Positions 1-64,000 of a stretch of 64,000 nucleotides of DNA are shown here, one piece after another. Location of the stretch: NCBI RefSeq assembly GCF_963921235.1, contig NC_086097.1, positions 19,036,001 to 19,100,000 on the forward strand. Reading direction: 5' to 3'. Made by a program: the position numbers and the translations under genes. Numbering within the stretch: the first letter of the stretch is position 1; every line of letters starts with the position of its first letter. This DNA is from Mobula hypostoma (taxonomy: Eukaryota). The notes beneath the pieces are model-generated. The model was not told the origin of the DNA and did not search any database. It was given only the letters and a program-made list of their open reading frames with translations.

Positions 1-54
1 TTTCTACAGAAGTGGTTTGCCCTTTTTTCAGCAGTGCAATATATAAAATGACCA

Positions 55-126
55 CACTACTATGCAAAAGTCTTAGGTTCCCCAGCTACATAGTATATAT
101 GTGCCTAAGACTTTTGCACAGCACTG
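55..126. mobile_element. Tc1/mariner-like mini-MITE hairpin (right end of a composite element)
   Basis: 23-bp inverted repeats cactactatgcaaaagtcttagg (55-77) and cctaagacttttgcacagcactg (104-126), 3 mismatches; upstream context matches 47470-47563. Confidence 0.7.
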
Positions 127-333
127 TTACTGGAGTGGGAACAATTGCAGTCAATGCCTGAAGCAGGTTCTGTTGCTTTCCACTGTAGTTACCTTCAGGC
201 ATGAGTTTCCCTGTGTAGGTGGATACCTGATTATTGACAAGGAATACGATGAGGCTGGGGAGCATGTTTCTGTGAAGTACGACCTTGTGTAAATATGGGC
301 AGGTGCATTACCGAGGCAACTGAGAAAAGGGAG

Positions 334-516
334 AACCTAAGTACAAGAGATTCTGCAAATGCCGACAACCCAGAATAACACATACAAAATGCTGCAGAAC
401 TCAGCAGATCAGGCTGCATCTGTGGAGAGGAATAAAAAGTCAATGTCTCAGGCCAAGACCCTTCTTCAATACTGCCTGGCCTGCTGAGTTCCTCCAGCAT
501 TCTATGTGTCTTACTT
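334..516. mobile_element. Penelope-like pLTR-derived fold-back element, old
   Basis: Inverted arms (acaaaatgctgcagaactcagcag / ctgctgagttcctccagcattctatgt), decayed hammerhead motif on the minus strand, flanking direct repeats tgagaaaagggag (321-333) / tgaggaaagggag (517-529). Confidence 0.65.
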
Positions 517-785
517 TGAGGAAAGGGAGTAGGTGGTTGCTAGAGGATGACAGGAGATGCTTTTCAGAAGTGTTTCATTGGTTGGACAGTACTTAAGTCC
601 TTCCTATGGGTGTGAACAGTTCACTGGACAATGATGGCAGTTCTGCTGTGCCCAAGGTGCAACCCAATAGGGCTTAAACTGGTGTCCAATCTCTCTCAGC
701 ATAATGCTTTCCTCTGCCATTTCTGCATGCCAGAAAACATCTCCATTTTAGTCCTGTCACTGTTGAGCTGCACTGTATATCCACG

Positions 786-902
786 TTACTGAGCGTGTTT
801 CATGGTATGTTTCAGATGCAGGTTGTAAACCTCAGCAATGAATTGCTCCCGTAGAAAACTAGATTGAAATTGTGGCCGTTTCTGAGTGTGTACTTGGGAC
901 AT
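786..902 (-). other. Candidate short ORF or exon (38 aa, MSQVHTQKRPQFQSSFLREQFIAEVYNLHLKHTMKHAQ), paralogous to 3822-3960
   Basis: Manual translation; 17/24 aa identity to the 3822-3960 segment with six synonymous differences. Confidence 0.35.
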
Positions 903-949
903 AGGTCATGATTTAGTGAGAGCAACACAGGCTTCAATACTTGAGCAGC

Positions 950-1386
950 AAATAATCGAAGCGCTCGGCAGAGATGGTGCTCGGTGCTCGGTGTCAGAGG
1001 GCTGGTCGGAGGCTCGAAGTTTTCGGGCGGACTCAAGAGTCGGCCGTGGTCGGGTGCTGCATCGGCAAGTTTACAGCGCTGGAGGTTCATGGCAGGAAGA
1101 GTTTCTCCCTTCTACCGTCTGCTTGAGATGATGGGACTTTCGAGAGACTTTGAGACTTTTTTTTACCATGCCCATGGTCTGCTCTTTATCAAATTACGGT
1201 ATTGCTTTGTACTGTTGTAACTATATGTTATAATTATGTGGTTTTGGTCAGTTTTTTTGTCTTGGTTTGTCTTGTGTTTCTGTGATATCACACCGGAGGA
1301 ACATTGTATCATTTCTTAATGCATGCATTACTAAATGACAATAAAAGAGGACAGAGTGTCCTCATAATCTAATCTAATTTAATCTT
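950..1386 (+). mobile_element. Non-autonomous retroposon with (AATCT)n Rex1-type tail, 5'-truncated copy
   Basis: Closely similar to 28060-28440 and 50425-50533; ends atgacaataaaagagg...aatctaatct; possible TSD cttgagcagc / cttgaggagc. Confidence 0.75.
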
Positions 1387-1397
1387 CTTGAGGAGCT

Positions 1398-1660
1398 CAG
1401 CACCACGATAGCATAGCAGTTAGTGAGACGCTATTACAGCTCAGTGCATCGCAGAGTTCGGAGTTCATTTCTGGCACTATTTTGTACAACCTCCCCGTGG
1501 AATGCATGAGTTTTCCCCTGGTGCTCTGATTCCCTCCTACACTCCGTGGGTTAATTGTCATTGTAACTTGTCCTGTGATTAGAATTGGGTTAATCGTGGT
1601 TGTGCGGTTGCTAGGGCAGCATGGTTCGAAGGGCCAGAAGGGTCTGCCCCGTGCTATATA
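1398..1660 (+). mobile_element. tRNA-derived V-SINE (HE1-like)
   Basis: tRNA-like head, decayed V-domain (ctccccgtgg...ggtgctctg), CR1-like tail gaagggccagaagggtctg. Confidence 0.7.
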
Positions 1661-2571
1661 GAATGAATAGAGCGGTATTTGTGGAAGGAAAGGAATGGAC
1701 AGGTTTGGACTTGCAACCCTAACAATTCCTTTCGTCCCACAGATGGTGCTTAACCCATAGAGTTCCTCCAGCAGGTTGCTTGTCACTTCAGATTCCAGCT
1801 TCTGCTGTCTCCTCTGTCTTCAGACTTCAACATTCCTAATTTCTTGGCCCAGAATCATCAAGAAGCAAACCATTGAATACAGCGAAGATCAGTGGGACAT
1901 TTGGAGCGGCGGAAGCTGAGGGAAGACCAGTTAAAAAGTTTATAAAATTGGAGGGGCATAGATAGAGTAGGCAGCTGATATCTTCTTCCTTTGTTAGAAA
2001 TGTCTGACACTCACGGGCATGCATTCAAGGTGAGAGGGTAAAATACGAAGACTTGGAATCCCCATGACAGCATGGGTTTCCTCCGCCTCCTCCAGTTTCC
2101 TCCCAATTCTGAAGATGCACGGGTTAGATCAATTGGTCACATGAGTGCAATTGGCCAGCATGGGCTCATTGGTCCAGAAGGGCCCATTACTGTGTAGACC
2201 TCTGAGTAAAACATAAAATAAAAGATGTGCAGGGCAGGTTTGTTTTACATAGGGACGTGGCGGGTGACTGCAATGTGCTGCCAGGCTGGTGTTGAAGGCA
2301 GATACAATTAAGGTGTTTAAGAGGCTCTTGGACAGACACATGGATCTGCAGAGACTGGAGGGATACAGACCCTGTAGGTACAGAATGGATTAGGTGCCAG
2401 CAGCTTAATTACTTCGGCACAACAGCCTTTTCCAGTGTTGTGTTGTCCTGTTTGATTCCTTCCCTTAATGTTAGAACCTGGTACAGTGCATTAAGCAAAT
2501 GTGTTACATCATCCTCTGAGTCTTCAGCTATGAGAGGCATAGCATTCACTCTGTAGGACTCTGACCTACAG

Positions 2572-3140
2572 AACAGATTCAGATTTTATTTATCACCTTT
2601 ATTTATAAACAGATAGTAAAACGTACAAATGTCAGTGTCGACCTAGCATACCCTCAGCACTTGGCTGAACGACACAGAACACATCAAACAATAAAACAAC
2701 AACAGCAAAACAAGCCCCTTTCTTCCCTCCCATCCACTCACACACACGGACTCTCCTCCATCTCCAGGACAAGCCTCCGGGCCTCCACTCTCCAGGATTT
2801 GGTCATTGGGCATCTACTTCCAATTGACCTTTGGGCTTCGATCTTCAGTGTTGACCCCTGGACTAGCTGATGACAGGACCCCAAACTCCAGGCCTGAACT
2901 CTGGTCTCGCTGACTCACCAGCCTTTGTGCCTCCTGCTCGCACAGACTTCCGATCCCAGGACCCACTGACCTGGGACAGCCCGACATCCAAGGATGCCCT
3001 TCGTCACACATCCACACCGCTGGCCTTTGAGTGTGAAGCGGCGGCCTAGACTCCGAACGTCCTTCATCCCATGTGCACGTCGCTGGCCTTTGAGAATGGA
3101 GTGGGGGCCTAGACTCCAGGTGATCTCCGTTACCTGTCTA
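2572..3140 (-). mobile_element. Non-autonomous element with Rex1-type tail and internal short duplications
   Basis: cagattcagattttatttatcac tail; similar to 15560-16095; internal repeat cgctggcctttgag...ggcctagactcc occurs twice. Confidence 0.5.
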
Positions 3141-3821
3141 TACAGCCTCGAAAACTGGTTGTAGTGTGCAATGCTTATGAGATCTCCAATTACACTGAGA
3201 CATGCTCTTCCATATGGCGTTCGTGCTGGTGATGTGACTTGTTAACTGGTCTGAGAAGAGTTAAAGGATTAGCACCTCTGCAAGAGAAACACAGTCTCCA
3301 GAACTGCACATTTGCTAGCCACACATGCCTGAAATATCATTTCAGAGGTTTGTTGATTTTTAAGAGACAGTTTTCCGTCCCATTTAAAGGAACAGATGTC
3401 GGTCTCATCCCCCCAAAAACTTCCATTAAGGGCAACTGATCCAGAGATCTCATAATCTACCCCGCCTCCCCACCCCATCAATATGCAATCTTTTTTAATG
3501 TTCTTCCCTGCACAAAATTAAAAATGGAGACGTCACCGTGCAATTGAAAGCAGACTAATGCGAGGGTTAAAGTTATGAAATAAAAGGCAGACTTAACAAC
3601 CATCAAAAACGCAGTCGTGTTTTTCTTATGATCTGGAAAGATATAAAAAAATTACCATATAAATGTTCTAGTTTTCTAAAAAGGCTTCAAGGGCAAAGTA
3701 ATCTCTTAATCTTGTCTGTCAGCACAAATCAGAAATGTTGACAGAATACAAAGCAGCATCTCTCAAATCTTCCTGCCATAATATGGAACATGACAAGGGC
3801 AAATCGAGTACTTCCACAGAA

Positions 3822-3960
3822 TTATCCTCTGCGAGTATGTTTCATTGCTCTTGTCAAGCTCAGGTTGTAAACATTGGCGATGAATTGCTCCTGTGGAAAG
3901 CTGGATTGAGGATCACGTTGTTTCTCTCTGCTTGGGAATCCTGGTTGCACTTTGGCTGGG
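3822..3960 (-). other. Candidate terminal coding exon (PAKVQPGFPSREKQRDPQSSFPQEQFIANVYNLSLTRAMKHTRRG*)
   Basis: Preceded by acceptor-like tttatcttctgtttcag; in-frame stop upstream of the acceptor; paralogous to 786-902. Confidence 0.35.
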
Positions 3961-4149
3961 CTGAAACAGAAGATAAATTGGCTTCATTTCTCCTGCTTTA
4001 TTGGCATTGAACACTAGCTTATGAATCATTGACAAGCAAGTCACTGCAGCTTAAGAAAACCCGAAATTAAAACAATTCTTTTCCCGGTTTGGGAACACCA
4101 ACTCTGTCTCTCTCGTCCGCTCCCTCTCCCCACTAAAGCATCTTGAGCT

Positions 4150-5605
4150 GCTAAGCTGTGCAAAATGAAGGATCCCAGCCTGCAACTGTTTATTCCTCTC
4201 CATAGCAACACACGCAGAATGCTGGAGGAACTCAGCCAGGCAGGCAACGTCAATGGAAAAGAGTAAAAAGTTGATGTTTAAGGCCGAGACCTTTCTTTGG
4301 GATTGAGGAAGAAGAAGGAAAGAGTCAGAATAAAAAGGTTGAGTGGGGAGGGAAAAGAGGTTAGCTGCAAGGTGATAGGTTCACCTTCAGGAGAGGGAAA
4401 TCAGAGGTCCATGAGCCAGTAATCACTGGAGGATCGGAGGATCGGAGGTGGAGAGGGTCAGTAACTTTGAACTTATCGGTGTTGCTATCTCAGAGGACCT
4501 GTCCTGGACCTATCCCATAACTATTGCAAGGAAAGCACAACAGTGCCCCCACTTCCTCAGGAGTCTTTGGAGACTCAGCACGTCATCAAAAATCTTAGCA
4601 AGCTTCTATACATGTATAATGGAAAGGGTGCTGACTGGCTGCATTACGGCCTGGTATGTGAACACCAATGCCTTTGAGTGGAAAACCCTACAAAAGGTAG
4701 TGGATTTGTCCCAGTACATCATGGGGGAAACCCTCCCAACCACTGAGCACATCTACATGAAACGTTGCCATAGAAAAGCAGCATCAATCATCAAAGAACC
4801 TCTCCACCCTGGCCATAATCTTTTTTCACCGCTGCCATCAGGTAGAAGGTACAGGTGCCCCAGGACTCACACCAACAGGTTCAAGAACAAACACTACCCC
4901 TCAACCATCAAAGGAGATAGCTACACTCATCTAAGGACTCTTATATTGTTATTTCATGCTTGTTATTTATTGCTATTTTTTATATCTGCACTTGCACAGT
5001 TTGTTTACAGTTAACAGTTCCTGATGTTTACGGTTTGCAATTATTGTTCTATTGATTTACTAAGTATCCCCACAGAGAAAAAAAATCTTCAGGTTGTATG
5101 TGGTGACATGTATTACTCTGATGACAAAATTTACTTTGAACTTTGAACTTTAGGTGAAATTAGGTGGGTATGAAAGGTCAAGGACTGGAGAAGAAAGAAT
5201 CTGATAAGAGAGGAGAGTGGAGTCTAGGAGAAAGGGAAAGAGGAGGAGAGCCAGGGCAGGTGAGATGAAGTGAAAGGTCAGAGTGGGGAATAGAGGAAGA
5301 GGAGGAAGGAAATTTGTTCACTAGAAGGAGAAATTTGTTCACCGGAAGGAGGAATCGATATTTATGCCATCATTCCCTTCCATAGACGCTGTCCGAGCTG
5401 CTAAGATCCTCCAAAATTTCGTGTGTCTTGCTCTGGATTTCCAGCATCTGCAGAAACTCTTGTGTTGACAATATCCTGAAGAAGAGTCTTGGGCTGAATT
5501 GTCAGCTGTTTATTCATTTCCATTGAGGATGCCTGGCCTGCTGAGTTCCTCCAGCATTTTGTGTGATGCTCTGGGTTTTCAGCATCTGCAAAATCTCTTG
5601 TGTTT
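4150..5605. mobile_element. Penelope-like pLTR fragments in inverted and tandem arrangement, interrupted by a Rex1 LINE
   Basis: atgctggaggaactcagc / ctgctgagttcctccagcatttt motifs; decayed hammerheads near 4270-4300 (-) and 5474-5508 (+); purine-rich PLE 3' UTR 4300-4380 resumes at 5151. Confidence 0.6.
4395..5150 (+). mobile_element. Rex1/Babar LINE 3' fragment
   Basis: ORF 4448-5014 has C-terminal Rex1-type motifs (LTGCITAWY, HPGHNLFSPLPSGRRYR); (ctttgaa)n tail. Confidence 0.85.
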
Positions 5606-6317
5606 TTGAGCTGTTGAGTATTTCCAACATTTTCTATTTTGCTTTTAGCGTGATTCAGTATAAACAGGTTTCTGAGAGAGCTATCAAAATAACCTCATCC
5701 TTTATCCTTTACTCATCCCCCCATTGCTCTGTAATTTTCCCCTTGAAAATCTAATAACTTTTGCACTGTAACAATTAAAGCCGCGTCCATCACTCATTCT
5801 AGTGGAGCTCTCCAGATTCTCGAAGCTCCACTGCACTTTAAAATAATTAATTTCTGTGACACCCACACACCCTGACTCTGGGGTATTTTACCATCAAAAT
5901 AGACAGGATGGAGCCTGGTTTGATATCTCTTTCAGAAACTGCCAAGTTGCAGTACATCCTCTGAATTCCCAGTGCTTTGAGTCGGCCCTTGAAATTTTGA
6001 CTTTTATCCCATTTCCAGTATCGCCACTGTTTTACCATTACAACACCATAGAGCGTAGGCGAAGCACAGGCTTTTAGGCCAATGATGTTGTGCCAACCTT
6101 TTAACCTACTCTAAGATAAACCTATCCCTTCTCTCGTGTGTAGCCCTCTATGTTTATATCACCCATGTGCCTAGCTAAGGAATCTCTTTGAGGTATCCAC
6201 TTCTACCGTCACCCCTGGCAGCTCGCTCCAAGCACACACCACTCTCCATGTAAAAAACTTGCCTCTGAGGTCCTCCCTATATTTCCCTCCAAAGCACTGT
6301 ACATTAATTTATAAATT

Positions 6318-6714: not shown

Positions 6715-6715
6715 A

Positions 6716-9700
6716 TAGACAATAGACAATAGGTGCAAGAGTAGGCCATTCAGCCCTTCGAGCCAGCACCACCATTCACTGTGATCATGGCTGATCATCC
6801 ACGATCAGTACCCTTTTCCTGCCTTCTCCCCATATCCCTTCACTCCGCTATCTTTAAGAGGTCTACCTAACTCTTTTTTGAAAGTTTCCAGAGAACTGGC
6901 CTCCACTGCCTTCTGAGGCAGAGCATTCCACAGAACCACAACTCTCTGTGTGAAAAAGTTTTTCCTCCACTCTGTTCTAAATTGTCTACCCCTTATTCTT
7001 AATCTGTGGCCTCTGGTTCTCGACTCCCCCAACATCAGGAACATGTTTCCTGCCTCTAACGTGTCCAATCCCTTAATAATCTTATATGTTTCAATCAGAT
7101 CCCCTCTCATCCTTCTAAATTCCAGAGTATACAAGCCCAGTCACTCCAATCTTTCAACATATGACAGTCCCGCCATCCCAGGAATTAACCTCGTGAACCT
7201 CCGCTGCACTCCCTCAATAGCAAGAATGTCCTTCCTCAAATTTGGAGACCAAAACTGTACACAATATTCCAGATGTGGTTTCACCAGGGCCCTATACAAC
7301 TGCAGAAGGACCTCTTAGCTCCTATACTCAATTCCCCTTGTTATGAAGGCCAGCATGCCATTAGCTTTCTTCACTGCCTGCTGTACCTGCATGCTTACTT
7401 TGAGAGACTGATGAACAAGGACACCTAGATCTCGTTGTACTTCCCCTTTTCCTAACTTGACACCATTCAGATAGTAATCTGTCTTCCTGTTCTTGCCACA
7501 AAAATGGATAACCTCACATTTATCCACATTAAACTGCATCTGCCATGCACCTGCCCACTCACCCAATCTGTCCAAGTCACCCTGCCTTCTCATAACATCT
7601 TCCTCACACTTCACACTGTCACCCAGCTTTGTGTCATCTGCAAATTTTACTTTTAATCCCTTCATCTAAATCATTAATATATATTGTAAATAGCTGCAGT
7701 CCCAGCACCGAGCCTTGCGGTACCCCACTAGTCACTGCCTGCCATTCTGAAAAGGACCCATTAATCCCTACTCTTTGTTTCCTGTCTGCCAACCAATTTT
7801 CTATCCATGTTAGTACCCTACCCCCAATACCATTTGCTCTAATTTTGCACACTAACCTCCTATGTGGCACCTTATCAAAGGTTTTTTGAAAGTCCAAGTA
7901 TACTACATCCACTGGCTTTCCCATGTCCATTTTCATAGTCACATTCTCAAAAAATTCCAGATTAGTCAAGCACGATTTCCCCTTCATAAATCCATGCTGA
8001 CTCGGACCTATCCTGCCACTGCTATCCAAATATGCCACTATTACATCTTTTATAATTGATTCCAGCATCTTCCCCACCATTGATGTCAGGCTAACTGGTC
8101 TACAATTCTCTGTTTTCTCTCTCCCTCCTTTCTTAAAAAGTGGGATAACATTAGCTACCCTCCAATCCGCAGGAACTGATCCTGAATCTATAGAACATTG
8201 GAAAATGATTACCAATGTGTCCACGATTTCTAGAGCCACCTCAAGTACCCTGGGATGCAGACCATCAGGCCCTGGGGATTTATCAACCTTCAGTCCCATC
8301 AGATTACCCAACACCATTTTGTGCCTGATTCGAATTTCCTTCAGTTCCTCTGTTACAGATCCAAAGTACCTATTCAGCTGGTCTGCCATTTCCTTGTTCC
8401 CCATAATAATTTCGCCCGTTTCTGTCTTCAAGGGCCCAACTTTGGTCTTAACTGATTTTTTTCCTCTTCACATACCTAAAGAAGCTTTTACTATCATCCT
8501 TTATATTTTTGGCTAGCTTACCTTCGTACCTCTTCTTTTCCCCCCGTATTGCCTTTTTAGTTATCTTCTGTTGCTCCTTAAAAGCCTCCCAATCTTCTGG
8601 CTTCCCACTCATCCTTGCTATGTTATACTTCCTCTCTTTTCTTTTTATACTGTCCTTAACTTCCCTTGTCATCCACAGTCGCCCCTTACTCCCCTTAGAA
8701 CCTTTCTTCCTCTTTGGAATGAACTGTTCCTGCACCTTCTGTATTATTCCCAGAAGTACCTGCCATTGTTGTTCCCCTGTCATCCCTGCTAGGGTATCTT
8801 TCCAGGCAACTTTGCCAGTTCCTCCCTTATGTGTCCATAGACCCCTTTGTTCAACTGTAATACTGACACTTCTGATCTTCCCTTCTCCCTCTCAAATTGT
8901 AGATTAGAACTTATCATATTATGGTCACGACCTCCTAATGGCTCCTTTACCTCAAGTTCCCTTATCAAATCTGGCTCATTACACAACACTAAATCCAGAA
9001 TTGCCTTCTCCCTGGTAGGCTCTAACACAAGCTGCTCTAAGAATCCATCTCTGAGGCATTCCACAAACTCCCTTTCTTGGGGTCCAGTACCAACCTGATT
9101 TTCCCAGTCTACCTGCATGTTAAAATCCCCCATAACAACCATAGAATTACCTTTGCTACATGCCAATTTTAACTCTTGATTTAACTTGCAGCCTATATCT
9201 AGGCTACTGTTTGGGGGCCTGTAGACAACTCCCATCAGGGTCTTTTTGCCCTTGCAGTTTCTCAGTTCTATCCATACTGACTCTACATCTCCTGATTCTA
9301 CGTCCCCCTCGCAAGGGACTGAATTTCATTCCTCACCAACAGAGCCACCCCACCCCCTCTGCCAACCTGTCTGTCCTTTCGATAGGATGTATATCCCTGA
9401 ATATTCACTTCCCAGCCCTGGTCCTCTTGCAGCCATGTCTCTGTTATTCCTACAACATCATACTTGCCAATTTCCAACTGAGCCTCAAGCTCATCCACTT
9501 TATTTCTTATACTCCGTGCATTCATATATAATACTTTTAATCATTTTAAAGTAATACTTTTACTCCCCTCGCCTTTCACATCAATTCCTATTGCACTTGC
9601 CCATACTCTCCGATCCCTTCCTGATCTTTCTGCCCCTTTAATTCTGTTGTCTTTCTTAACTTTTCTTATTCCCTCATTCCCTTTAACTCCATTCTTATAC

Positions 9701-10950
9701 TTCCAGTTCATCTCCACGCCCCCCACTACCTAGTTTAAACACACCCGTGTAGAAGTGGCAAACCTGCCTGCCAGAACGCTGGTTCCCCGTCTGTTAAGGT
9801 GCAACCCGTCCCTTCTGTACAATTCATCCTTACCCCAAAACAGATCCCAGTGGTCCAAGAATCTAAATCCCTGATCCCTGCACCAGCTCCTCAGCCACAC
9901 ATTCAGATCCCCTATCTCCCTGTTCATGTCCTCTCCAGCACAAGGAACTGGAAGCAATCCCGAGATAACCACCCTGGAGGTCCTGTTTTTCAGCCTTCTT
10001 CCGAGTTCTCTGAAGTCACGCCGCAAAATGTCTCTCATCTTCTTCCCGACGTCATTTGTGCCGACATGCACCACCACCTCCAGCTGATCACCTTCTCCCT
10101 TGAGGATGCCCTACAATTGGTCCGTGATATCCTGGATCCTGGCCCCAGGGAGGCAACACACCATCCTTAAATCTCGCCTGTTGCCGCAGAAACCCCTATT
10201 TGTACCTCTCACTATGGAGTCCCCTACTACCACGGCTCTGCCTGACGTCTGTCTCCTCGGCTTTATTTCAGCACCAATTGTTGACTCGCAGACCCGTCTG
10301 CCTCTCAGACTGGCACTGTCTTCTGTCCCGACAGCTTCCAAGAGGGAGAACCTGTTTACGAGAGGCACATCCCCCGTGGTCTCCTGTACACTAAGCATCC
10401 ATCCCTTCCTCATCGTCGCCCCCCCTTCTCTCTTCCGGTATCTTCGATGTAACGACCTCGCTGCCAGTCCTGTCCACAAAAGTCTCTGTTTCCTGGAAGA
10501 ACCTGAGGTCATCCGGTTGCCTCTCCAGTGCCTTAACACGGTCCTTCAGGAGCTGAACCTGGACACACTTTTCACATTTGTAGCAGCCAGAGGCACTATC
10601 AACGTCCCTGACCTCCCACATCATGGCCCACACTGAATCAGTTGACCTGTCATTTCTTCACCACTTCTCACCCTCTCCAACTGTGGCGTAGTCTCCTCCC
10701 TCAGCCTCCTCACCGAAGACTCTCGAGCCAAAGACTCGCACTTTTCTCGCAAGGCACTTCCCTCGACAAGGCCGCTCCCCTCGACAAGGCCACTTCCCTA
10801 GAGTAAACCTTGATTATATTGGCTAATATTTGACTAATTCGTTTCAATTGTCGCAGCTCGGCCGACCTCGAACGTTTGTCTTGCAGTCTGGTCTCAACCG
10901 GGTTTTAAATCAACCACTCCTTCTCAGCCAATGCCCTCACTTTAAGTGCG
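6716..10950 (-). mobile_element. Near full-length CR1 LINE, frameshifted (esterase ORF1, APE-RT ORF2)
   Basis: ORF1 pieces: Cys pairs (CYKCEKC), GDSIVRG, HVGTND, DGLHLN (SGNH fold). ORF2 pieces: [42 protein letters not shown]. (atagaca)n tail. Confidence 0.93.
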
Positions 10951-11095: not shown

Positions 11096-11137
11096 CAGTC
11101 GATGTTTCAGGCCGAGACCCTTCGTCAGGACTAACTG
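11096..11137 (-). ncRNA. Minimal type I hammerhead ribozyme motif
   Basis: Reverse complement cagttagtc-CTGACGA-agggtctcggcct-GAAA-c-ATC-gactg: conserved core, stem I agtc/gact, short stem II. Confidence 0.7.
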
Positions 11138-11837
11138 AAGGAAGAGCTAGTAAGAGATTTGAAAGTGGGAGGGGGAGGGGGAGATACAAAATCATAGGAG
11201 AAGACAGGAGGGGGAGGGATGGAGCCAAGAGCTGGACAGTTGAATGGCAAAAGGGATATGAGAGGATCATGGGACAGGAGGCCTAGGGAGAAAGAAAAGG
11301 GGGGGGGAAACCCAGAGGATGGGCAAGGGGTATAGTCAAAGGGACAGAGGGAGAAAAAGGAGAGAGAGAGAAAGAATGTGTGTATATAAATAAATAACGG
11401 ATGGGGTACGAGAGGGTGGTGGGGCATTAGCGGAAGTTAGAGAAGTCAATGTTCATGCCATCAGGTTGGAGGCTACCCAGACGGAATATAAGGTGTTGTT
11501 CCTCCAACCGCATGAACATTGACTTCTCTAACTTCCGCTAATGCCTCACCTCCCCCTCGTACCCCATCCATTATTTATTTATATACACACATTCTTTCTC
11601 TCTCTCTCCTTTTTCTCTCTCTGTCCCTCTGACTATACCCCTTGCCCATCCTCTGGGCTTTTTCCCCCCTCCCCCTTTTCCTTCTCCCTGGGCCTCCTGT
11701 CCCATGATCCTCTCATATCCCTTTTGCCTATCACCTGTCCAGCTCTTGGCTCCATCCCTCCCCCTCCTGTCTTCCCCTAATCATTTCAGATCTCCCCCTC
11801 CCCCTCCCACTTTCAAATCTCTTACTAACTCTTCTTT

Positions 11838-11879
11838 CAGTTAGTCCTGACGAAGGGTCTCAGCCCGAAATGTCGACTG
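11838..11879 (+). ncRNA. Minimal type I hammerhead ribozyme motif
   Basis: cagttagtc-CTGACGA(11847-11853)-agggtctcagccc-GAAA(11867-11870)-t-GTC-gactg; predicted cleavage after C11874. Confidence 0.7.
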
Positions 11880-18157: not shown

Positions 18158-20060
18158 CCTCAAGCTTTTCAACCTTGCTGATGGGGATTTCATACACTGT
18201 TAAAGGCCACATGAGTCTTGGGAGTATGCCAAACTGGAAGCACCACAGCTGGAGTTTTCCTGGCAGCAAGGTCTTGTTGATGCGAGCTATGTACATGATG
18301 GTCTCCTTTTTGAGTTGTTCAAGCTGCTCAGTGTCCTTGAGCATAGCATCATACCATCGGCCCAAGCTCTTCACTGGCATTTCTGAAACAGTTGGGACAG
18401 CTGTCCCGTCAATCTGAAATCTTCTATCCGTGACCTGACCTTTGACAATGGAGATGCTTCTGCACTTGCTGGGCTTGGTCTTCATCCTCGCCCATGTGAT
18501 GTTTTAGAAACATAGAAACATAGAAACATAGAAAATAGGTGCAGGAGTAGGCCATTCGGCCCTTCGAGCCTGCACCGCCATTTATTATGATCATGGCTGA
18601 TCATCCAACTCAGAACCCAGCCTTCCCTCCATACCCCCTGACCCCTGTAGCCACAAGGGCCATATCTAACTTCCTTTTAAACATAGCTAATGAACTGGCC
18701 TCAACTGTTTCCTGTGGCAGAGAATTCCACAGATTCACCACTCTCTGTGTGAAGAAGTTCTTCCTAATCTCGGTCCTAAAAGGCTTCCCCTCTATCCTCA
18801 AACTGTGACCCCTCGTTCTGGACCTCCCCAACATCGGGAACAATCTTCCCGCATCTAGCCTGTCCAATCCCTTTAGGATCTTATACGTTTCAATCAGATC
18901 CCCCCTCAATCTTCTAAATTCCAACGAGTACAAGCCCAGTTCATCCAGTCTTTCTTCATATGAAAGACCTGCCATCCCAGGAATCAATCTGGTGAACCTT
19001 CTTTGTACTCCCTCTATGGCAAAGATGTCTTTCCTCAGATTAGGGGACCAAAACTGCACACAATACTCCAGGTGTGGTCTCACCAAGGCCTTGTACAACT
19101 GCAGTAGTACCTCCCTGCTCCTGTACTCGAATCCTCTCACTATAAATGCCAGCATACCGTTCGCCTTTTTCACCGCCTGCTGTACCTGCATGCCCACTTT
19201 CAATGACTGGTGTATAATGACACCCAGGTCTCGTTGCACCTCCCCTTTTCCTAATCGGCCACCATTCAGATAATAATCTGTTTTCCTATTTTTGCCACCA
19301 AAGTGGATAACTTCACATTTATCCACATTAAATTGCATCTGCCATGAGTTTGCCCACTCACCCAACCTATCCAAGTCACCCTGCATCCTCTTAGCATCCT
19401 CCTCACTGCTAACACTGCCACCCAGCTTCGTGTCATCCGCAAACTTGGAGATGCTGCATTTAATTCCCTCATCCAAGTCATTAATATATATTGTAAACAA
19501 CTGGGGTCCCAGCACTGAGCCTTGCGGTACCCCACTAGTCACCGCCTGCCATTCTGAAAAGGTCCCGTTTATTCCCACTCTTTGCTTCCTGTCTGCTAAC
19601 CAATTCTCCACCCACACCAATACCTTACCCCCAAAAGGTTTGATGAAGCTTTTCCAGAAGTCTCTTGGTGCAGGGGAAAGTTGTCGTCAGTATTGTTATA
19701 TCGTCCATATAGGCTCGTATCGGTGGTAACCGTTGGCCAAACTGTAGCCCTTTTCCTCCCGCAACCCATTTTGAGGCTCTGTTAATGAGTTCCGTTGCCA
19801 TCGTGAAGGCCAATGGGGAGATGGTGCACCCCGCCATGATGCCTACTTCCAGTGGCTGCCATGCTGTTGTGAAGTCTGATGTTGTGAGACAGACTTGCAG
19901 ATCCTGGAAGTAGTGTTTTACCAGATTTGTTATTGTTGCAGGCACCTGAAAGAATTCAAATGCAGTCCACAGTAGGGAATGAGGAATTGATCCATAGGCA
20001 TTGGCCAGGTCGAGGAACAAGACATGCAGGTCCTTCCTTTCTTTCTTAGCCATCTGGATT
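18158..20060 (-). mobile_element. HERO-like (R2 superfamily) non-LTR retrotransposon RT fragment, split by a CR1 insertion
   Basis: FLDLANAYGSIPH, GIMAGCTISPLAF, AYMDD, VKSLGRWY, LPRLMWPLTVYEIP; halves 19639-20060 and 18158-18505 rejoin as EKLHQNITWARMKTKPSK. Confidence 0.8.
18506..19634 (-). mobile_element. Young 5'-truncated CR1 LINE
   Basis: Open 336-aa RT C-terminus (18610-19620); (tagaaaca)n tail; about 99% identical by eye to 59461-60589. Confidence 0.95.
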
Positions 20061-27809: not shown

Positions 27810-28440
27810 GAGGTGGGAGGAGAAGATGGCAGTGCGACGCAGCGCACGTAAGCCCCTCCGGTGAAATGATATCGTATTTGTAAGTAGGACACCGTGCACA
27901 ATTCTGATTTGATGAAGACAGACATGAGAAGCAGAGGAACATCTGGAGAAATTTCTGAAATGCCCGGTTCGCTGCCGCTGCTACTGCGTGATCGAGAATC
28001 TCCGGAGGGAAGGCCCCAAAATCCCCGGTTTTGCCTGCTGCTGGCGACCGAGGCTGAGGTCGAAGCGTTCGGATAGAGATGGTGCTCGGTACTCGATGTC
28101 GGAGGGCTGATCAGAGCTCGAAGTTTTCGGACAACTCAGGGTCGGACTGTGGTCGGGCATGGCAGGGAGAGTTTTTTCTTCCTTCTCCCGTCTGCGTGAG
28201 ATGTGGGACTTTCGAGAGACTTTGAACTTCTTAACTGTGCCATGGCCTGTTCTTCATCAAGTTTTGGTATCGTTGCACTGTTGTAACTATATGTTATAAT
28301 TATGTGGTTTTTGTTAGTTTTTCAGTCATGGTCTGTCCTGTGTTTCTGTGATATCACACCAGAGGAACATTGCATTATTTCTTAATGCATGCATTACTAA
28401 ATGACAATAAAAGAGGACTGCGTGTTCTCATAATCTAATT
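27810..28440 (+). mobile_element. Apparently full-length non-autonomous retroposon (AAGATGGC head, AATCT tail)
   Basis: Shares 3' part with 950-1386 and 50425-50533; CpG-rich 5' half; no recognisable ORF. Confidence 0.75.
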
Positions 28441-39350: not shown

Positions 39351-41719
39351 AATTGCCTTTATTGTCACTGGGGACTTTAATCATTGCAACCTACATACCG
39401 TGCTTCAAAGATTTTACCTAAATGTAAAATGCACCACAAGGGGAAATAAAACCTCAGATCATGTCTAGACAAATGTGGCTGATGCTTACAAAGCCACTGC
39501 CCTCCCCCACCTGGGACAGTCCGACCATCTTTCAGTGTTTCTGCTCCCCAAGTATAGCCCAGTCAGTAAACGTCTGAAACCCACAATGAGGACTATTAAG
39601 ATCTGGCTGGAGGGTGCTGACTCTGCTCTTCAGCACCAATTCCAGCACACAGACTGGAACACGCTTGCTGCCCATGCCACCACAGACTCTCAGATTAACA
39701 TTAATTTATATACCAACTCTGTCCTTGAGCACATCAACAAGTGTGTAGATAGAGTGACATCACAAAGACAAATAAAAGTTTTCCCCAATCAGAAACCATG
39801 GATGAACAGAGAGGTTCACCTCCCACTCAAAGCCAGAGATTCAGCCTTCAGGTCTGGAGACCAGGAGGCTTACAGCTCAGCCAGGGCCAACCTGAGGAGG
39901 GGAATCTCTCAGGCTAAACACAGATACAAACAGAGAATCGAGGAGCATTTCAACTCCTCGGACTCCCAGCACATGTGGCATGGCATACAGGTCATTACAG
40001 ACTTCAAACCACCTAGTACTGTGCCCCCTTCCAGCTCTGCTTCCCTCCCTGATGAGCTTAATTACTTCTACGCTCGCTTTGACTGAGAGAACAAGGAGGT
40101 CACCCTCAAAGCGGATCTCCCACCTGGTGAACTGCTTCTCTCACTTTCCACCTGTGATGTTTGTGCCACCCTGAGCAGGGTGAATGTACGGAAGGCAGCT
40201 GGTCTGGATGGAATACCTGGCCGTGTGCTCAGAGTCTGTGCAGGGCAGTTGGCCAGGGTCTACACGAACATTTTCAAACTGTCCCTGGCCCAGGCAGTTG
40301 TCCCCACAGGCTTCAAGATCGCCACCATCGTGCCAGTGCCGAAACATTCCACTACCACTGGCCTGAATGACTTCTGCCCGGTTGCACTCACCCCCATCAA
40401 TGCAAAGTGCTTTGAGAGACTGATTCTATTGCATCTGAAATCCTGTTTGCTCACTACCCTGGACCCCCATCAATTTGCCTATCGCACCAACAGGTCTACA
40501 GAGGACGTCATCTCCACAGCACTTCACTCTGCCCTGACCAACATGGACAGCCCCAACTCTTACGTCAGAATGTTGTTCATTGACTTTAGTTCAGCATTTA
40601 ATACTGTGATTTCCTCCAAGCTGATCGCCAAACTTCGCCAGCTTGGTATCAGCTCATCCCTCTGCAATTGGACCTTGGACTTTCTGACTAACAGACCCCA
40701 GTCAATTAAGTTAGATGATCTCTCCTCCTCCACTCTCACCCTGAACACCGGTGTGCCTCAAGGCTGTGTGCTGAGCCCTCTTCTGTACTCCCTTTTCACC
40801 TATGACTGCGTTCCTGTACATGGTTCTAACTCCATAATCAAGTTCGCAGACAACACCACGGTGGTTGGCCTGATCAGAGGGGATGACGAGACGGCCTACA
40901 GGGACGAGGTCCAGCACCTGGCCACGTGGTGTGCCGACAACCTGCCCTTAACACCCAGAAGACCAAGGAGATCATTGTGGACTTCAGGCATGCTAGGAGC
41001 CACACTCACATCCCCATCTATGTCAACGGAGCTGTAGTGGAGTGTGTATCAAGCTTCAAATTCATTGGTGTCCACATTTCTGGGGATCTTATCTGGTCCC
41101 TGAACTCCTCCATCCTGATCAAAAAGACACAACAGCGCCTTTCTTTCCTGTGGAGCATCAAGAAAGCTCACCTCTGTCCCAGGATACTGACAGACTTTTA
41201 CCACTGCACCATTGAGAGCATACTCACCAACTGCATCTCAGTGTGGTATGGCAATTGTCCCATATCAGACCACAAAGCACTCCAGCGTGTGGTGAAAACT
41301 GCCCAGCGGATTATCGGCACCCAATTGCCCACCATTGAGAACATCTACCATAAACGCTGCCTGGGCAGGGCGAAAAGCATTATCAAGGATGCATCTCACC
41401 CTAACCATGGACTTTTTACTCTCCTCCCATCCGGTAGGCGCTACAGGAGCCTCCACTCCCGCACCAGCAGGCACAGGAAGAGATTCTTCCCTGAGGCTGT
41501 GACCCTGCTGAACCTCTCATCACAGCGCTAAGCAGTATTGCACCCATACTGTACTGTCTCAGTACTTTTATATTTGTGTGTTGTAGCACTTACTTTTTAT
41601 TCGCAGTTATTTTGTAAATACACTATTCTTTGCATTTCTGGGCAGATGCTAACTGTATTTCATTGGCTTTGTATCTGTACTCGGCACAATGACAATAAAG
41701 TTGAATCTAATCTGATCGA
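39351..41719 (+). mobile_element. Rex1/Babar LINE, 5'-truncated (partial APE, RT), one stop and one frameshift
   Basis: GDFNH, LGQSDH, NQKPWMN, LDPHQFAYR, FIDFSSAFNT, GVPQGCVLSP, KFADN, LLPSGRRYR; tail gacaataaagttgaatctaatct; possible TSD ATAACC. Confidence 0.92.
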
Positions 41720-42575: not shown

Positions 42576-43145
<570 letters not shown>

Positions 43146-47782: not shown

Positions 47783-50422
47783 AAGTTCAAGTTCAAATTC
47801 AGGTTTATTGTCATCTGACTGTACACATATACAACCAAATGAAACAATGTTCCTCCAGACCATGGTGCACCCACAAAACATACATCATACACAGCACATA
47901 AACCAAAACAGTAACATTATAAAATAGAAGTCAAATTGCATGTAGTGCGCAGCACAGGTAAACAGTAACAACTTGCTCTCCTAATGACAAGACCTCAGTG
48001 GTGGCAAGGTATTCATTAGTCTCACAGTCTGAGGGAAGAAGCTGTTGCCCGGTCTGCCTTATGGACCTGGCTCAAAGGGATTGTGGGATGGGTAGTAACC
48101 TCAACAATGCTTTGGGCCCTTCATATGCAATGCTTCCGGTAAATGTCACACATGGATGGGGAGGGATACCCCGATGATCCTCTCAGTGGTTTTTCCTGCC
48201 CTCTGTGGGGTCTTGCAATCCAATGCCTTGCAGCTTCCACACCACACAATGACATAGCCAGGCAGGACATTCTCCTTGGTGCTCCTGCGGAAATCTGTTA
48301 GAATGGGGGTGGGGAGCCTTGCACGTCTCCATCTCCTCAGAAAGTGTAGACATTGCCGTGCCTTCTTGACTATTGAGCAGGAGATGTGGGTTCAGGTGAG
48401 ATAGTTTATCATGCACATACCAAGGAACTTTGTGCACTTCAATCTCTCCGTGGCAGAGCCATTGATGTGCAATGGGGAGTGGTTGACTTGTGCCTTCCTC
48501 AAGTCCACAATCATCTCTTTTGTCTTGTCCACAATGAGACCCGTGTTATTGTTCTCACTCCAATCAACAAGCCTCTTGACCTCCTGTCTGTATGCTGGCT
48601 CATCATTGTTGCTGATGAGTGAACTTGATGATGCGGTTTCAAAGGTTTCAAAGGTACATTTAATGTCAGAGAAATGTATACAATATACATCCTAAAATGC
48701 TTTTACTTCACAACCATCCACAAAAACAGAGGAGTGTCCCCAAAGAATGAAGTTAAATGTTAGAACCCCAAAGTCCCCCCCAGCTCCCCTCTCTCCTTCG
48801 TGTAAGTAGAAGCAAAATTAACAATCCCCCTCCCCCCACCAGCAAAAAAAAAGCATCAGCAGCCACTACCGAGCACTCAAGCATGCAGCAAAGCAACAGC
48901 AAAGACACAGACTTGTGGTACTCCAAAGACTACTCATTCACCCAGTATTCAACATACCACAGGCTCCCTCTTTCCCTAATAAGGGAGAAAGAAATGTCTC
49001 CGTTTCACAGCGAGAGGGGAGACATAACAAATAACTCATTGGTTTACAATGTGAAAAGTCTGTTGCATCGCTTTTTCTGAGCTCTGTGCCCAAAGATTTC
49101 GGGTTTCTGGGCACACAGCCATAGATCTTCCATCTCCCACGACACACCAATCTCCTTCCGGGACACTGATCCTTGATTCCCCCTGTCAATAGAGCCATGA
49201 GATCTCAGACCTCCGAAGGGAGCTAAGCTCTTCGGCCGCATCCTTGGCATGTCGAATAACGGCTAGTGGTGAAACCCCAAGAGCGGGTCCCGTTCCCGCA
49301 AAGAACCGGTCTAAGCTGAATCTGGCAGTGCAGCTGTGAGTTGGCAGTATGGACGGCAGCAGGTCCTGGGGGAGATACCAAAGCTCAACGTGATGGAGCT
49401 TGAGATGTTGCTGTCAACTCAGACTGAGTGAGCTCTTTCCATCAAGAAATCCAAGACCCAGTTACAGAGAAGGGTGTTGAGTCCCAATGAGGACAGTTTG
49501 CCCACCAGCCTCTGATCATGTTAAACACCGAGATGAAGCCAATGAATAACATCCTGGCGTATGAAGCATCATCTTTTAGGTGGGGCAGGATGGAGTGGAG
49601 GGCCAAGGCTATGGCATCATCAGTGGGCAGTAGGCAAACTGGAAAGCTGTAAGATGAGATTTTATACAATCCATTACTAGCTGCTCAACGCACTTCATGG
49701 TTGTCAAAGTCAGGTGATAATTGTGTAGACCAGTTACCATCACTCTGTTGGAACCTGAAACAATGGTGGCTGCCTTGAATACTGCAGGGACTGTGTCAGT
49801 GATATTAAGGGTGGTCATTAAGTCCTCTGTTAGCTGGGTCCCTGAGCACCTGATCAGGTATGTTGTCTCGTTCCGCAGCTTTGTGTGGGTTCTTCCTCAT
49901 CTCAGCTGCAGCCAGATGGGGTGCCTATTCTTTCAATGTCACACCACTAAATGCGCCAGATCATTCGGCCTATCAGGAAGGGAGGTGTCATTGTTGTTGA
50001 TACGTAGGGTGGAATTGTAATCGGTTATGGTTTATATGTCCTGTCATATCCATTGTGTTTTCCTGGTGTCACAAATGTGTCTGTGGATTTTCTGTGCATA
50101 CTCATGCTTTGCCTTCCTGATAGCACAGAACAGCAAGGCTTTTGCTCAACTTGAAGTCATCCTGTCCTCCAATCTGAAAGTAGTGTCCCAATTCCCAAGC
50201 AGTGCCTGAACCTCAGCAGTCAGCCATTGTTTCTGGTTTCCCCTGGCGATGTAGTCATCTAATCATTGTAATGTCCTCAATGCATTTGCCTATGTAGCTA
50301 GTCACCGATCCCACATTTCTCTCAAAGTCGATGAGATGATCATAGGTAGCTACCTTCCTGAGTATGTTCCAGTCCGTGCTTCTGAAGTAGTCCAGCAGCA
50401 CTGAGGAGGCACTTTCCAGCCA
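47783..50422 (-). mobile_element. Decayed Rex1/Babar LINE, interrupted by a non-autonomous element (about 48641-49305)
   Basis: (caagtt)n tail at about 47783; RT remnants (YARMLFIGF, AFQFAY, VFKAATIV); the insert has an (aaaggtt) tail. Confidence 0.75.
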
Positions 50423-50624: not shown

Positions 50625-51910
50625 ATCAGAGCCAGAATCAAACTCACATTTACTGTCACTGAAATTTGCTTTCTGACAGCCCCACAGTGAAATACATGAA
50701 ATATTATTCTAAGTTACCTTAACAAATATTTAACCCTTACATACTGTTCGGGTCAAATTTGACCTTTGTCAGCAGTAAAAACACCCTAAATGCCATTTTT
50801 TTAGCCGAAATTTGATGACTTTTCCTAAAGTGACCCAAAATGTGCAAAAATGAAAATATTTAAAAATTTTAAACATTTGTACAGGTGCTACAAATTTTTG
50901 TGCATTGAGCTGTTCCAGGTCAAATTTGACCCGTATCTATTGAAATGGATTTTAGATCTCTGAAACATTAATTAAGGATTAATCACCCATTTACTAATGT
51001 CAGATAGGCTATTTATACATTCTAAATAGATCTGTGGTTCAAAATTTGGTATAGACACTTGTTATGAGGGGATTCTTGGGCCAGGTCAAAATTGACCCAG
51101 ACCGTACTGTGAAGGTATAGAATATGAACAGGTTGCCTGGATTAAAAAAAACAGTAAGTTGAACAAAAAGAACAAAAAGTAAGATAGTGTTCATGGTTTC
51201 ATGGTCCATTCAGAAATCTGATGGCAAAGGAAAAAGAAGTTGTTTCTAAAACATGAGGCTTCTACACCACCTCCTTGATGGTATCAAGAAGAAGAGGGCT
51301 TACCTTAGATGGTGAGAGTTCTGAATTATGGATACCATCTTCTTGAGACATCACCTATCGAAGACGTCCTCAAGGCTGAAGAAACTATTTCCCATGATGG
51401 ACTTGGCTGAAGTTAGAACCCTCTGTTGCTTTTTCTGATCCTGTGAGTGCGCCCTCCATGCCACATAGTGGCGGAACCAGTACATCTGTAGAAATTTGCA
51501 AGAGATTTTGGTGACATACCAAATCTACTCAAACTCCTAATGTAATATGGCTGCCAGTGTGCCTTCTTTGTAATTGCATCAATGTGTTGGGCCCAAGATG
51601 GATCTTCAGAGGTGTTGACACCCAGGGACTTGAAGTTGCTCACCTTTGTCACTTCTGATCCCTCAAGGAGAACTATTGCGTATTCTTCCAATTTCCCCGT
51701 CTTGAAGTCCACAATCAATTCCTTGGTCTTAATGGCATTGAGTGCAAGGCCATTGAATTTATAGATGGCATTTAAGATGTGCCTAGCCACACAGCCATTA
51801 ATGTTAAGGGAGTAGAGCAGTGAGCTAAACACACATTCTTGAGGTGCACCTGAGTTGATTGTCAGCAAAGAGGAGATGTTACTTCCAAGCCTCACTGACT
51901 GTGATCTCCA
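50625..51910 (-). mobile_element. Rex1/Babar 3' fragment hosting a piggyBac MITE
   Basis: ORF 51413-51895 (GAPQECVFSSLLYSL, KTKELIVDF); 3' UTR continuous across 50734-51141. Confidence 0.8.
50734..51141. mobile_element. piggyBac-type MITE
   Basis: TTAA flanks at 50730-50733 and 51142-51145; CCC start and degenerate right TIR; three GGTCAAA(T/A)TTGACC palindromes. Confidence 0.7.
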
Positions 51911-52734
51911 ATCTGCAATTGTAGGCTGTCCCGAGGATCAAAGTTATTACAGGGGAAAGGATTGTGCCAGATAGAAACTGGTTAAAAACCTTCCTGTTCC
52001 TATCGTCAGGTGACGTTGGCTGGAGAAGATGGTTAACACTTACCAAACCAATGACTAGTTTTTACTCAGGTACCTGCGTTTCTGAGGCACTTAGAGTTCA
52101 AACTTCAAAGGTCAAATTTATTATCAAAGTATATATGCAATATACTACCTGGAGATTCATCTACTTGCTGGCACCGATAAAACAAAGAAATATAACAAAA
52201 AGTCCTCAACACTTTAACCTGACGACGCTTTAATCAGTGTGGATTAATGGAGCTGAGCACGGGTTCACTTTCTGCTCTTGGCCCTTGACACAGCGTCCAC
52301 CCCAGTGATGCAGCTAGGCAGCTTTTCTTGAGAATGCTCACCATGCCTCATGGCATCAAAAAGGCTGCTTTGAGCCCCTCTCGGGGACACGTGCTTCTTT
52401 TAGAAGGAGCACATTTACTGAGTGTACCTTGCCTCGTTCCAGTGCCTTGACTTTGAATCGGTTGTTTACAATTGATTTTCATCCCAGTCATCTGGGACGT
52501 TTATCAGTGGCCTACTTAAAGGGAAGCTACAAGGGATCGAACTGGTGCAGTAGCCTTTAGGACCGGGTTATTGATGGTAGGAAAAACCCATGGAAGAAGT
52601 GACTGGGCTGTCTCAATTCAAGTACTGATCATCTTGCAGAGGTGCCCCCAATTTAGCATGATCCATTGGTGTTGACTAGAAATTAAAAGATATGACTAAT
52701 AGACTAGAAACAGGCAGACAGTATATCCCACTTG

Positions 52735-62400: not shown

Positions 62401-63264
62401 GCTTGCCCTGGATTTGTCGGCCTGCCACTTTTACTTTTCCCCTTTGTACTTTTTGCTTCTACGCTCACTTTACACCCCTCTGTCTCTCTGCACTGGTTCC
62501 CATCCCTCTGTTGTGAACTAACCTCCTCACACCTAGCCACTTTAATTTGATTCCCACCCCCCAACCATTCTAGTTTAAAGTCACCTCAGTAGCCCCCGCT
62601 AATCTCCCTGCCAGGATATTGGTCCCCCTAGGATTTAAGTGTAACCCGTCCTTTTTGTACAGGTCACACCTGCGCCAAAAGAGGTCCCAATGATCCAAAA
62701 ACTTGAATCCCTGCCCCCTGCTCCAATCCCTCAGCCACGCATTTATCCTCCACCTCATCGCATTCCTACTCTCACTGTCGCGTGGCACAGGCAGTAATCC
62801 CGAGATTACTATCTTTGCGGTCCTTTTTCTCAACTCCCTTCCTAGCTCCCTATATTCTTCTTTCAGGACCTCATCCCTTTTCCTACCTATGTCATTGGTA
62901 CCTATATGTACCAGGACCTCTGGCTCTTCACCCTCCCACTTCAGGATATCTTGGACACGATCAGAAATATCCCGGACCCTGGCACCAGGGAGGCAAACTA
63001 CCATCCGAGTCTCTGGACTGCGTCCACAGAATCGCCTATCTGACCCCCTTACTATCGAGTCCCCTATCACAACTGCCCTCCTCTTCCTTGCCCTACCCTT
63101 CTGAGCTACAGGGCCAGACTCTGTGCCGGAGGCAGGGCCACTGTCGCTCCCCCCGGGTAAGCTGTCCCCCCCAACAGTACTCAAACAGGAGTACCTGTTG
63201 TTAAGGGGCACAGCCGCCGGGGTACTCCCCATCACCTGCCTCTTCCCCTTCCCCCTCCTAACCG
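59461..63264 (-). mobile_element. Young CR1 LINE: partial esterase ORF1 and complete ORF2 with one nonsense codon
   Basis: ORF2 frame runs 62564 to 59565 with only a TAG at 60141-60143; ORF1 motifs GDSIVRG, HIGTND, DGLHLN; (tagaaaca)n tail. Confidence 0.96.
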
Positions 63265-64000
63265 GAGCCATGAGAAGGCTTTGGCAGGCAGGATTAAGGA
63301 AAACCCCAAGGCATTCTACAAGTACGTGAAGAGCAAGAGGATAAGACATGAAAGAATAGGACCTATGAAGTGTGACAGTGGGAAAGTGTATATGGACCGG
63401 AGGAAATAGCAGGGCTGAGAAGTGGCAGATGGAGTTCAATCCAGATAAGTGTGAGGTGGTTCATTTTGGTAGGTCAAATATGATGGCAGAATTTAGTATT
63501 AATGGTAAGACTCTTGGCAGTGTGGAGGATCAGAGGGATCTTGGGGTCCGAGTCCATAGGACGCTCAAAGCGGCTGCTCAGGTTGACTCTGTGGTTAAGA
63601 AAGCATACGGTGTATCAGCCTTCATCAATCGTGGAATTGAATTTAGGAGCTGAGAGGTAATGTTGCAGCTATATAGGACCCTGGTCAGACCACACTTGGA
63701 GTACTGTGCTCAGTTCTGGTCACCTCACTACAGGAAGGATGTGGAAGCCATAGAAAGCATGGAGGAGATTTACAAGTATGTTACCTGGATTGGGGAGCAT
63801 GCCTTATGAAAACAAGCTGAGTGAACTTGGCCTTTTCTCCATGGAGCGACAGAGGATGAGAGGTGACCTGATAGAGGTGTATAAGATGATGAGAGGCATT
63901 GATCGTGTGGGTAGTCAGAGGCTTTTTCCCAGGGCTGAAATGGCTGCCACAAGAGGGCACAGGTTTAAGGTGCTTGGGAGCAGGTACAGAGGAGATGTCA
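63265..64000 (+). mobile_element. Continuation of the host CR1 ORF2, internally deleted
   Basis: HEKALAGRIKENPKAFYKYVK, then a jump to AEKWQMEFNPDKCEVVHFG. Confidence 0.88.

Follow-up and report, generated by a model that had tools for sequence, protein, structure and literature searches.

Do two short, similar segments on the minus strand of a 64,000-nt stretch of Mobula hypostoma DNA (the whole analysed stretch, hereafter the window) descend from a protein-coding exon, and, if so, from an exon of what kind of gene? The original prediction held that they are paralogous, differ in a protein-coding manner, lie outside recognisable repeats, and may belong to a candidate small gene antisense to SYNDIG1L, as duplicated terminal exons, a repeated domain, or a pseudogene. 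The peptides it described are present on the minus strand, at 902-786 in copy 1 (38 aa, ATG to TAA) and at 3959-3822 in copy 2 (45 aa to TAA), and its 24 indel-free codons, 17 identical residues, and six named synonymous differences were all reproduced.

The two segments are paralogues. On the minus strand, positions 881-789 (copy 1) and 3923-3831 (copy 2) form a gap-free block of 31 codons, at an offset of 3042 nt, in which 63 of 93 nt are the same. Within this block, the 24-codon core (866-795 and 3908-3837) has no indels, 53 of 72 identical nucleotides, and 17 of 24 identical residues, six of these 17 being specified by different, synonymous codons. Conservation is uneven along the core (40 of 48 nt over the first 16 codons, then 13 of 24), and 13 of its 19 nucleotide differences are transitions. 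A blastn self-search of the 64-kb window gave the pair an E value of 3e-7, and its local score of 4287 compares with a maximum of 1974 in 1000 shuffles, placing the claimed homology far above chance.

The similarity between the copies ends at both stop codons. Outside the block, neither the 5′ flanks (P 0.23) nor the 3′ flanks (P 0.07) align significantly, and the copies have no common 3′ UTR or tail. A 7-nt match upstream of the block, offset by 4 nt (near 890), is not significant on its own (P 0.23); if it were exonic, this offset would break the frame between the copies. When the 64-kb window was searched with an nhmmer profile of the two copies, no third copy was found (next best E 1.9); the two copies lie on the same strand, 3 kb apart. 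Of the 1675 pairs in a six-frame protein self-comparison, those scoring 28 bits or more with little repeat cover were inspected, and this pair was the sole one among them judged not to derive from a repeat.

The position of the pair was defined by the exon content of the window. The plus-strand frame at 42597-42779 gave 726 protein matches among 735 candidates; the same Pfam domain was found across the 120 matches listed, the named ones were nearly all SYNDIG1L, and among them the zebra shark and stingray SYNDIG1L proteins were 100% identical over the aligned part, which by itself places the DNA in a cartilaginous fish. When eight of these 120 listed SYNDIG1L-type proteins were aligned back, the only exon matched was that at 42606-42743 on the plus strand (138 nt, AG..GT), which is the middle coding exon and the sole SYNDIG1L exon in the window. 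Because neither the first coding exon, which is well conserved, nor the last one lies in the window, the pair should fall within the intron that precedes the middle coding exon and exceeds 42 kb, if the gene is intact and correctly assembled. With minus-strand segments and a plus-strand exon, the antisense position in the original prediction holds, and our analysis adds to it both this placement within an intron and a second candidate acceptor in the conserved core, described below.

The window is very repeat-rich: 12 of its own LINE ORFs, used as queries, mask 45% of it. Neither segment is similar to any of these 12 (0% of either is matched), in agreement with the claim that they lie in non-repeat sequence. 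An interspersed repeat at 956-1373, ∼55 nt upstream of the copy 1 ATG, is 79% identical to 28060-28439 and is covered by many contigs of a related organism. When three contig sets that are possibly RNA (one related organism, one study) were compared with positions 1-6300 at 88%, the flanking repeats were deeply covered and the bins 631-840 and 3571-3990 had zero depth, a zero that is not informative on expression or copy number.

We then analyzed the substitutions between the copies codon by codon. The predicted frame is the only one of six that is stop-free in both copies, whether over 24, 26, or 31 codons, and it also has the lowest dN/dS of the six; the antisense mirror frame has a dN/dS of 0.45 (31 codons) or 0.48 (24 codons) but contains shared stops. 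Over 24 codons, dN/dS in the predicted frame was 0.20 by counting, and maximum likelihood under a codon model with free kappa gave 0.31 (24 codons), 0.37 (26 codons), and 0.44 (31 codons), with dS at 0.74-0.81. In likelihood ratio tests these values did not differ significantly from 1 (P 0.081, 0.127, and 0.157 for 24, 26, and 31 codons, respectively), and the profile interval includes 1. With kappa fixed at 2.5, the corresponding P values were 0.032, 0.053, and 0.080.

Null models that allow for the choice of frame gave a graded answer. Under random placement of the substitutions, with any of the six frames accepted over 24 codons, P was 0.007 for the joint pattern and 0.074 for the silent changes only; for the best-conserved 16 codons, the same type of null gave 0.18 and 0.24, respectively. 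Column shuffling over 31 codons in six frames gave P values of 0.011-0.025 for an open frame with at least six synonymous and at least 18 identical codons, and 0.07-0.08 when the identity term was dropped; in 32-37% of shuffles, some frame was free of stops in both copies. With transition bias and the six possible frames taken into account, the coding pattern is weaker than it first appears. What stands of the claimed coding substitution pattern is the open frame and its lowest dN/dS, whereas its strength does not carry over in full, dN/dS not being significantly below 1.

The window's own repeats served as an empirical control, in the form of 72-nt blocks that are free of gaps and similarly diverged. 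The joint test was passed by 57 of 204 LINE-ORF blocks and by none of 16 blocks from repeats outside ORFs, the latter being a small non-coding control. By our own estimate, the codon pattern favors descent from a coding sequence by perhaps tenfold, a figure to be read with the knowledge that the pair was picked for its coding-type pattern. Because LINE-ORF blocks pass the same test, the pattern cannot tell a host gene from a mobile-element ORF. From these results, we consider the coding signal of the pair suggestive, not proven.

Copy 2 has splice-like and poly(A)-like sequence around its reading frame. Its candidate coding part, at 3960-3822 on the minus strand, consists of 45 codons and a TAA read from 3959, with entry in phase 2 if the acceptor before 3960 is used. 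This outer candidate acceptor (3975-3961, AG at 3962-3961, first exon base 3960) scores 5.3 with a splice matrix of our own making, built from human frequencies, under which the true SYNDIG1L sites score 5.6 (acceptor) and 5.0; the site before 3960 that had been called good is therefore close to a true acceptor on this scale. The inner candidate acceptor (3912-3891, first exon base 3890, phase 0) scores 4.3. As many as 42 of 4677 minus-strand AG sites score as high as the outer acceptor (a chance density of 0.66 per kb on this strand) and 91 of 4677 as high as the inner one, acceptors of such scores arising by chance at 0.7-1.4 per kb. Neither copy has a donor scoring above -1.8 within it or directly behind it; any exon at these sites would therefore be a last exon. 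A candidate poly(A) signal, ATTAAA, lies at 3499-3494, ∼320 nt past the copy 2 stop.

If the inner acceptor is the one used, the first six "codons" of the core would be the end of an intron, and two of the six silent changes would be pyrimidine swaps within it; the remaining exon, of 18-22 codons, has a dN/dS of 0.23 (P 0.071). AlphaFold2, given a two-row alignment, predicted an unstructured start and one helix at residues 22-43 of the 45-aa peptide (pLDDT 86-89 over blocks 21-40), which coincides with the conserved core and lies in the copy 2 side of the homologous block. Short helices are easily predicted, and this helix is therefore weak evidence.

Copy 1 differs from copy 2 in its acceptor, start, and poly(A) sequences. 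Its 38-codon ORF (902-786, minus strand) has no usable acceptor, the best of eight AG sites in 788-939 scoring -0.7, and the stretch aligned to the inner acceptor of copy 2 (870-849) ends in GG, not AG. Although the ATG attributed to copy 1 is present, its context is poor (C at -3, T at +4), an in-frame TGA stands two codons before it, an out-of-frame ATG with A at -3 precedes it by 7 nt, and it has no counterpart in copy 2. No canonical poly(A) signal follows copy 1 within the window, only rare variants (752, 579). The lack of an acceptor and a canonical poly(A) signal fits poorly with long constraint on both copies. The ATG is weak evidence for a gene start, and copy 1 has more the look of a decayed duplicate.

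Searches for relatives of the peptides were made in protein families, structures, and contigs. Pfam gave no family for either of the two peptides, and for 48 stop-free frames around both copies it gave four matches, all below the cut-off and none on the two peptides. An NCBIfam match to BSAP5a, for copy 1 only (E 0.027), was taken as chance. In the PDB, copy 1 had no match and the alignment had five unrelated ones at E 0.36-1. Word searches of 5.8 billion proteins returned two candidates in the range of 80-2000 aa, none of them at E up to 10, and no match among those of 20-79 aa; HMMER found no relative at E up to 0.001 among 1.84 billion representatives, and the ESM Atlas gave no usable match for copy 1 or copy 2. 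None of the pattern matches in viral (92) and metagenome (264) contigs was confirmed, and a degenerate 10-codon pattern found no stretch in metagenome, viral, or prokaryote contigs. All of these protein searches are weak for so short a query; with only 24-31 residues to go by, they would miss distant relatives. As a control, annotated and assembly-derived shark and ray SYNDIG1L proteins were present in the word-searched collection; given the annotated shark and ray proteins there, the peptide probably lies outside the annotated proteins of that collection. Literature searches found no paper on short peptide motifs or SYNDIG1L shark synteny, and nothing on the element among the papers listed. 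Suspected likenesses to PTHrP, to helix D of IL-13, to helix H of globin, to a BMP prodomain, and to L1 ORF1 were set aside, as no profile matched.

The segments were also analyzed as RNA and as mitochondrial DNA. A search of positions 1-6000 in Rfam at E up to 5 gave four matches, all far below the gathering score and off both segments, and six folds (z -1.1 to +1.0) gave no sign of an RNA structure that is stable or common to both copies; a structured RNA (miRNA, snoRNA, or ribozyme) was rejected on these grounds. On its reading frames, a nuclear copy of mitochondrial DNA was rejected too: translated with the vertebrate mitochondrial code, none of the six stays free of stops in both copies.

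On the minus strand of the window, candidate upstream exons comprised six combinations of an ATG, a hydrophobic stretch, and a donor, and 11 internal exons, none of them convincing; no signal-peptide exon with a good donor was found in unique sequence of the window. A hydrophobic ORF at 3603-3478 was set aside as background, being one of 29 such ORFs in 64 kb and having a donor score below 1.5. Three U12-like donors were also seen on this strand. The proposed small gene antisense to SYNDIG1L is supported in part, by paralogy, antisense position, and the open frame, but the analysis turned up neither a homologue nor an upstream exon nor a transcript for it.

The reading that we prefer, at a probability of roughly 45%, is that the pair is an old tandem duplicate of the terminal exon of an orphan nested gene, encoding a helix of ∼22 residues, with copy 1 probably decayed. 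The history that we infer would start with a single exon, ancestral to both copies: the terminal, coding exon of a small host gene antisense in the long SYNDIG1L intron. An old local tandem duplication would then have given the two copies, 3042 nt apart. Selection on the protein would have preserved a core of ∼24-31 codons, which encodes one helix running to the stop, and the flanks would have drifted beyond recognition; the lack of any indel in 93 nt at a dS of ∼0.7-0.8 beside unalignable flanks supports such a course. In copy 2, which has acceptors and an ATTAAA and no donor, splicing would join 3960 or 3890 to an upstream exon that perhaps lies beyond the window or outside SYNDIG1L; translation would stop at the TAA at 3822, and the transcript would extend past the ATTAAA at 3499 before it ends. 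Copy 1 would have been constrained for much of its history, but it now has no usable acceptor and has probably decayed. Its lack of an acceptor or canonical poly(A) signal counts against the nested-gene reading, as do the non-significant dN/dS tests and the searches that found neither a relative nor a convincing upstream exon. The helix, judged from its shape and position only, would most likely be a short binding segment at the C terminus of a small protein.

That copy 2 is possibly still spliced and translated, as a candidate live exon, is a more doubtful part of this reading. In its fullest form, copy 2 would be the live last exon of an unannotated gene specific to cartilaginous fish, antisense in the SYNDIG1L intron. 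Its product would be a small protein or a secreted peptide with a C-terminal helix outside all described families, and copy 1 would be an alternative last exon or a recently silenced paralogue; we regard this form as somewhat unlikely.

A duplicated, constrained non-coding element, such as an intronic enhancer of SYNDIG1L or a neighbor or the exon of a non-coding RNA, is a plausible, although tentative, alternative, in which the third-position excess would be chance among 19 mostly transition-type differences. It draws on a dN/dS not significantly below 1, on 13 of 19 differences being transitions, mostly silent at third positions, on the ease with which shuffled columns leave some frame open in both copies (32-37%), and on the searches, which found no protein relative and no upstream exon. 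The uneven conservation of the core (40/48 nt, then 13/24) is as in clusters of binding sites, and the core has what we take to be a forkhead-like motif, with a short presumed palindrome in copy 1 only. Joint null P values of 0.007-0.025, the absence of the pattern from all 16 non-ORF repeat blocks, the 93 nt free of indels, and a homology that stops at both stop codons all argue the other way, and the version with a non-coding RNA meets, in addition, fold z values of -1.1 to +1.0 and no Rfam match over the segments. The neutral remnant of an old local duplication, that is, the best-preserved patch of two decayed copies without function, appears very unlikely. The weak hints of similarity outside the block (the 7-nt match at a 4-nt offset, P 0.23; the 3′ flank, P 0.07) would fit a larger decayed duplicate, yet 83% identity across 48 nt, next to flanks that cannot be aligned, would hardly arise without constraint or gene conversion, and the codon pattern has a P of 0.01-0.07.

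Improbable, in our judgment, is a third origin, in which both segments would be remnants of an ORF end, left by a mobile or endogenous viral element that is rare or very old, and the codon pattern would date from active element lineages and not from the host. In this genome such relics do show the pattern (57 of 204 LINE-ORF blocks in the window), the window is 45% masked by 12 LINE ORF queries alone, and distant searches cannot be expected to reach a piece of only 24-31 residues; one report describes purifying selection among mobile-element copies, for plant LTR elements (PMC9073684). Against it, the LINE ORFs of the window match 0% of either segment, Pfam gave no family for the peptides and none above the cut-off for the 48 surrounding frames, no third copy turned up in 64 kb, and the copies have neither a 3′ UTR nor a tail in common. 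It would be unlikely for two elements to insert independently with the same short extent, on the same strand and 3 kb apart, whereas a duplication after insertion would diverge neutrally; for a viral element, moreover, the viral contigs searched contained no relative.

Returning to the preferred reading of a terminal exon in a nested antisense gene, we compared the pair with known systems. A general class is formed by genes that lie antisense within long introns of vertebrate genes and by small-ORF genes with a tandemly duplicated last exon. Like its members, the pair lies on the opposite strand inside a host intron, copy 2 resembles a short terminal exon with an acceptor, a stop, and a poly(A)-like signal, and the local duplicate shows an excess of silent change. 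Unlike them, the pair has no convincing first exon in the window and no relative in the libraries searched, and it lacks an acceptor in copy 1. Nested small genes and duplicated last exons are a known kind, and the sequence itself would be new, without known relatives.

Relics of non-LTR retrotransposon ORFs (CR1 and the other LINE families of the window) share with the pair a gap-free divergence rich in silent changes, but the pair has no similarity to the 12 window LINE ORFs, no Pfam match to a reverse transcriptase or endonuclease, only two copies in 64 kb, and no shared tail. Helical peptide-hormone precursors (the PTH/PTHrP, CRH, and secretin-glucagon families) offer another lead: in them as in the pair, the N-terminal part is disordered and variable, and behind it, at the C-terminal end, comes a conserved helix of ∼22 residues with basic residues on either side. 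The pair differs from them in having no Pfam or PDB match (best PDB E 0.36, unrelated) and in cleavage and amidation signals that are not conserved, KR being present in copy 1 only and the RRG end in copy 2 only. Duplicated conserved non-coding elements resemble the pair as short, sharply bounded conserved blocks in the intron of a neural gene, and are unlike it in that the differences within the pair follow codon phase and its open frame runs to stop codons. We assign the pair to no peptide-hormone, cytokine, LINE, RNA, or mitochondrial family, as none of these leads was matched.

We conclude that the pair is a real, unexplained, and cheaply testable candidate supported by modest statistics. 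It also brings a caution: in this genome, pairs of mobile-element relics commonly differ in a coding-type way, and such a substitution pattern alone is no proof of a host gene. If the pair is non-coding, it would be a duplicated intronic element of modest interest. If the gene is real, it would represent a protein family absent from every library searched and found only because its exon was duplicated; shark and ray annotations would then be missing small nested genes, and the peptide would be a candidate for a lineage-specific one.

Within the 64-kb window (1-64000), the plus-strand host gene SYNDIG1L is represented by a single exon of 138 nt (42606-42743). Because no other SYNDIG1L exon lies in these 64 kb, the introns flanking it would be >42 kb and >21 kb long, provided that the gene is intact and correctly assembled.

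Several repeats occupy the same window. A young, near-complete CR1-type LINE lies on the minus strand at 59565-63460, with an upstream ORF of 296 codons (63460-62570), an open stretch of 814 codons (62585-60141), and a continuation of the latter in a different frame (60140-59565); additional copies are found at ∼6715-10545 and 18520-19686. A LINE of a second family (39469-41531, plus strand) has three long open stretches (205, 316, and 214 codons), and related fragments occur at 4415-5014, 48158-48622, and 51413-51937. At 11134-11462 and 11506-11841, two copies of a repeat that closely resemble each other are arranged as an inverted pair, separated by ∼45 nt, and together make a large imperfect palindrome.

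Around copy 2, the minus-strand segment 3822-3960, seven acceptor-like sites (4155, 3960, 3890, 3632, 3507, 3277, and 3250; scores of 4.3-6.3 with our home-made splice matrix) fall within ∼900 nt of mostly non-repeat minus-strand sequence (3250-4155), a density that by raw count exceeds the window average of ∼1.4 per kb at that score. No good donor was found between these seven sites. The site at 3632 lies just ahead of a 41-codon minus-strand ORF (3603-3478), located between copy 2 and its paralog, copy 1 (786-902), that has a signal peptide–like start and a weak donor; the window contains 29 ORFs of this kind.

A weak minus-strand alignment (P 0.07) was observed between 1876-1823, upstream of the repeats adjoining copy 1, and 4046-3980, intron-like sequence upstream of copy 2. 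This similarity may be the remnant of a larger duplicated unit.
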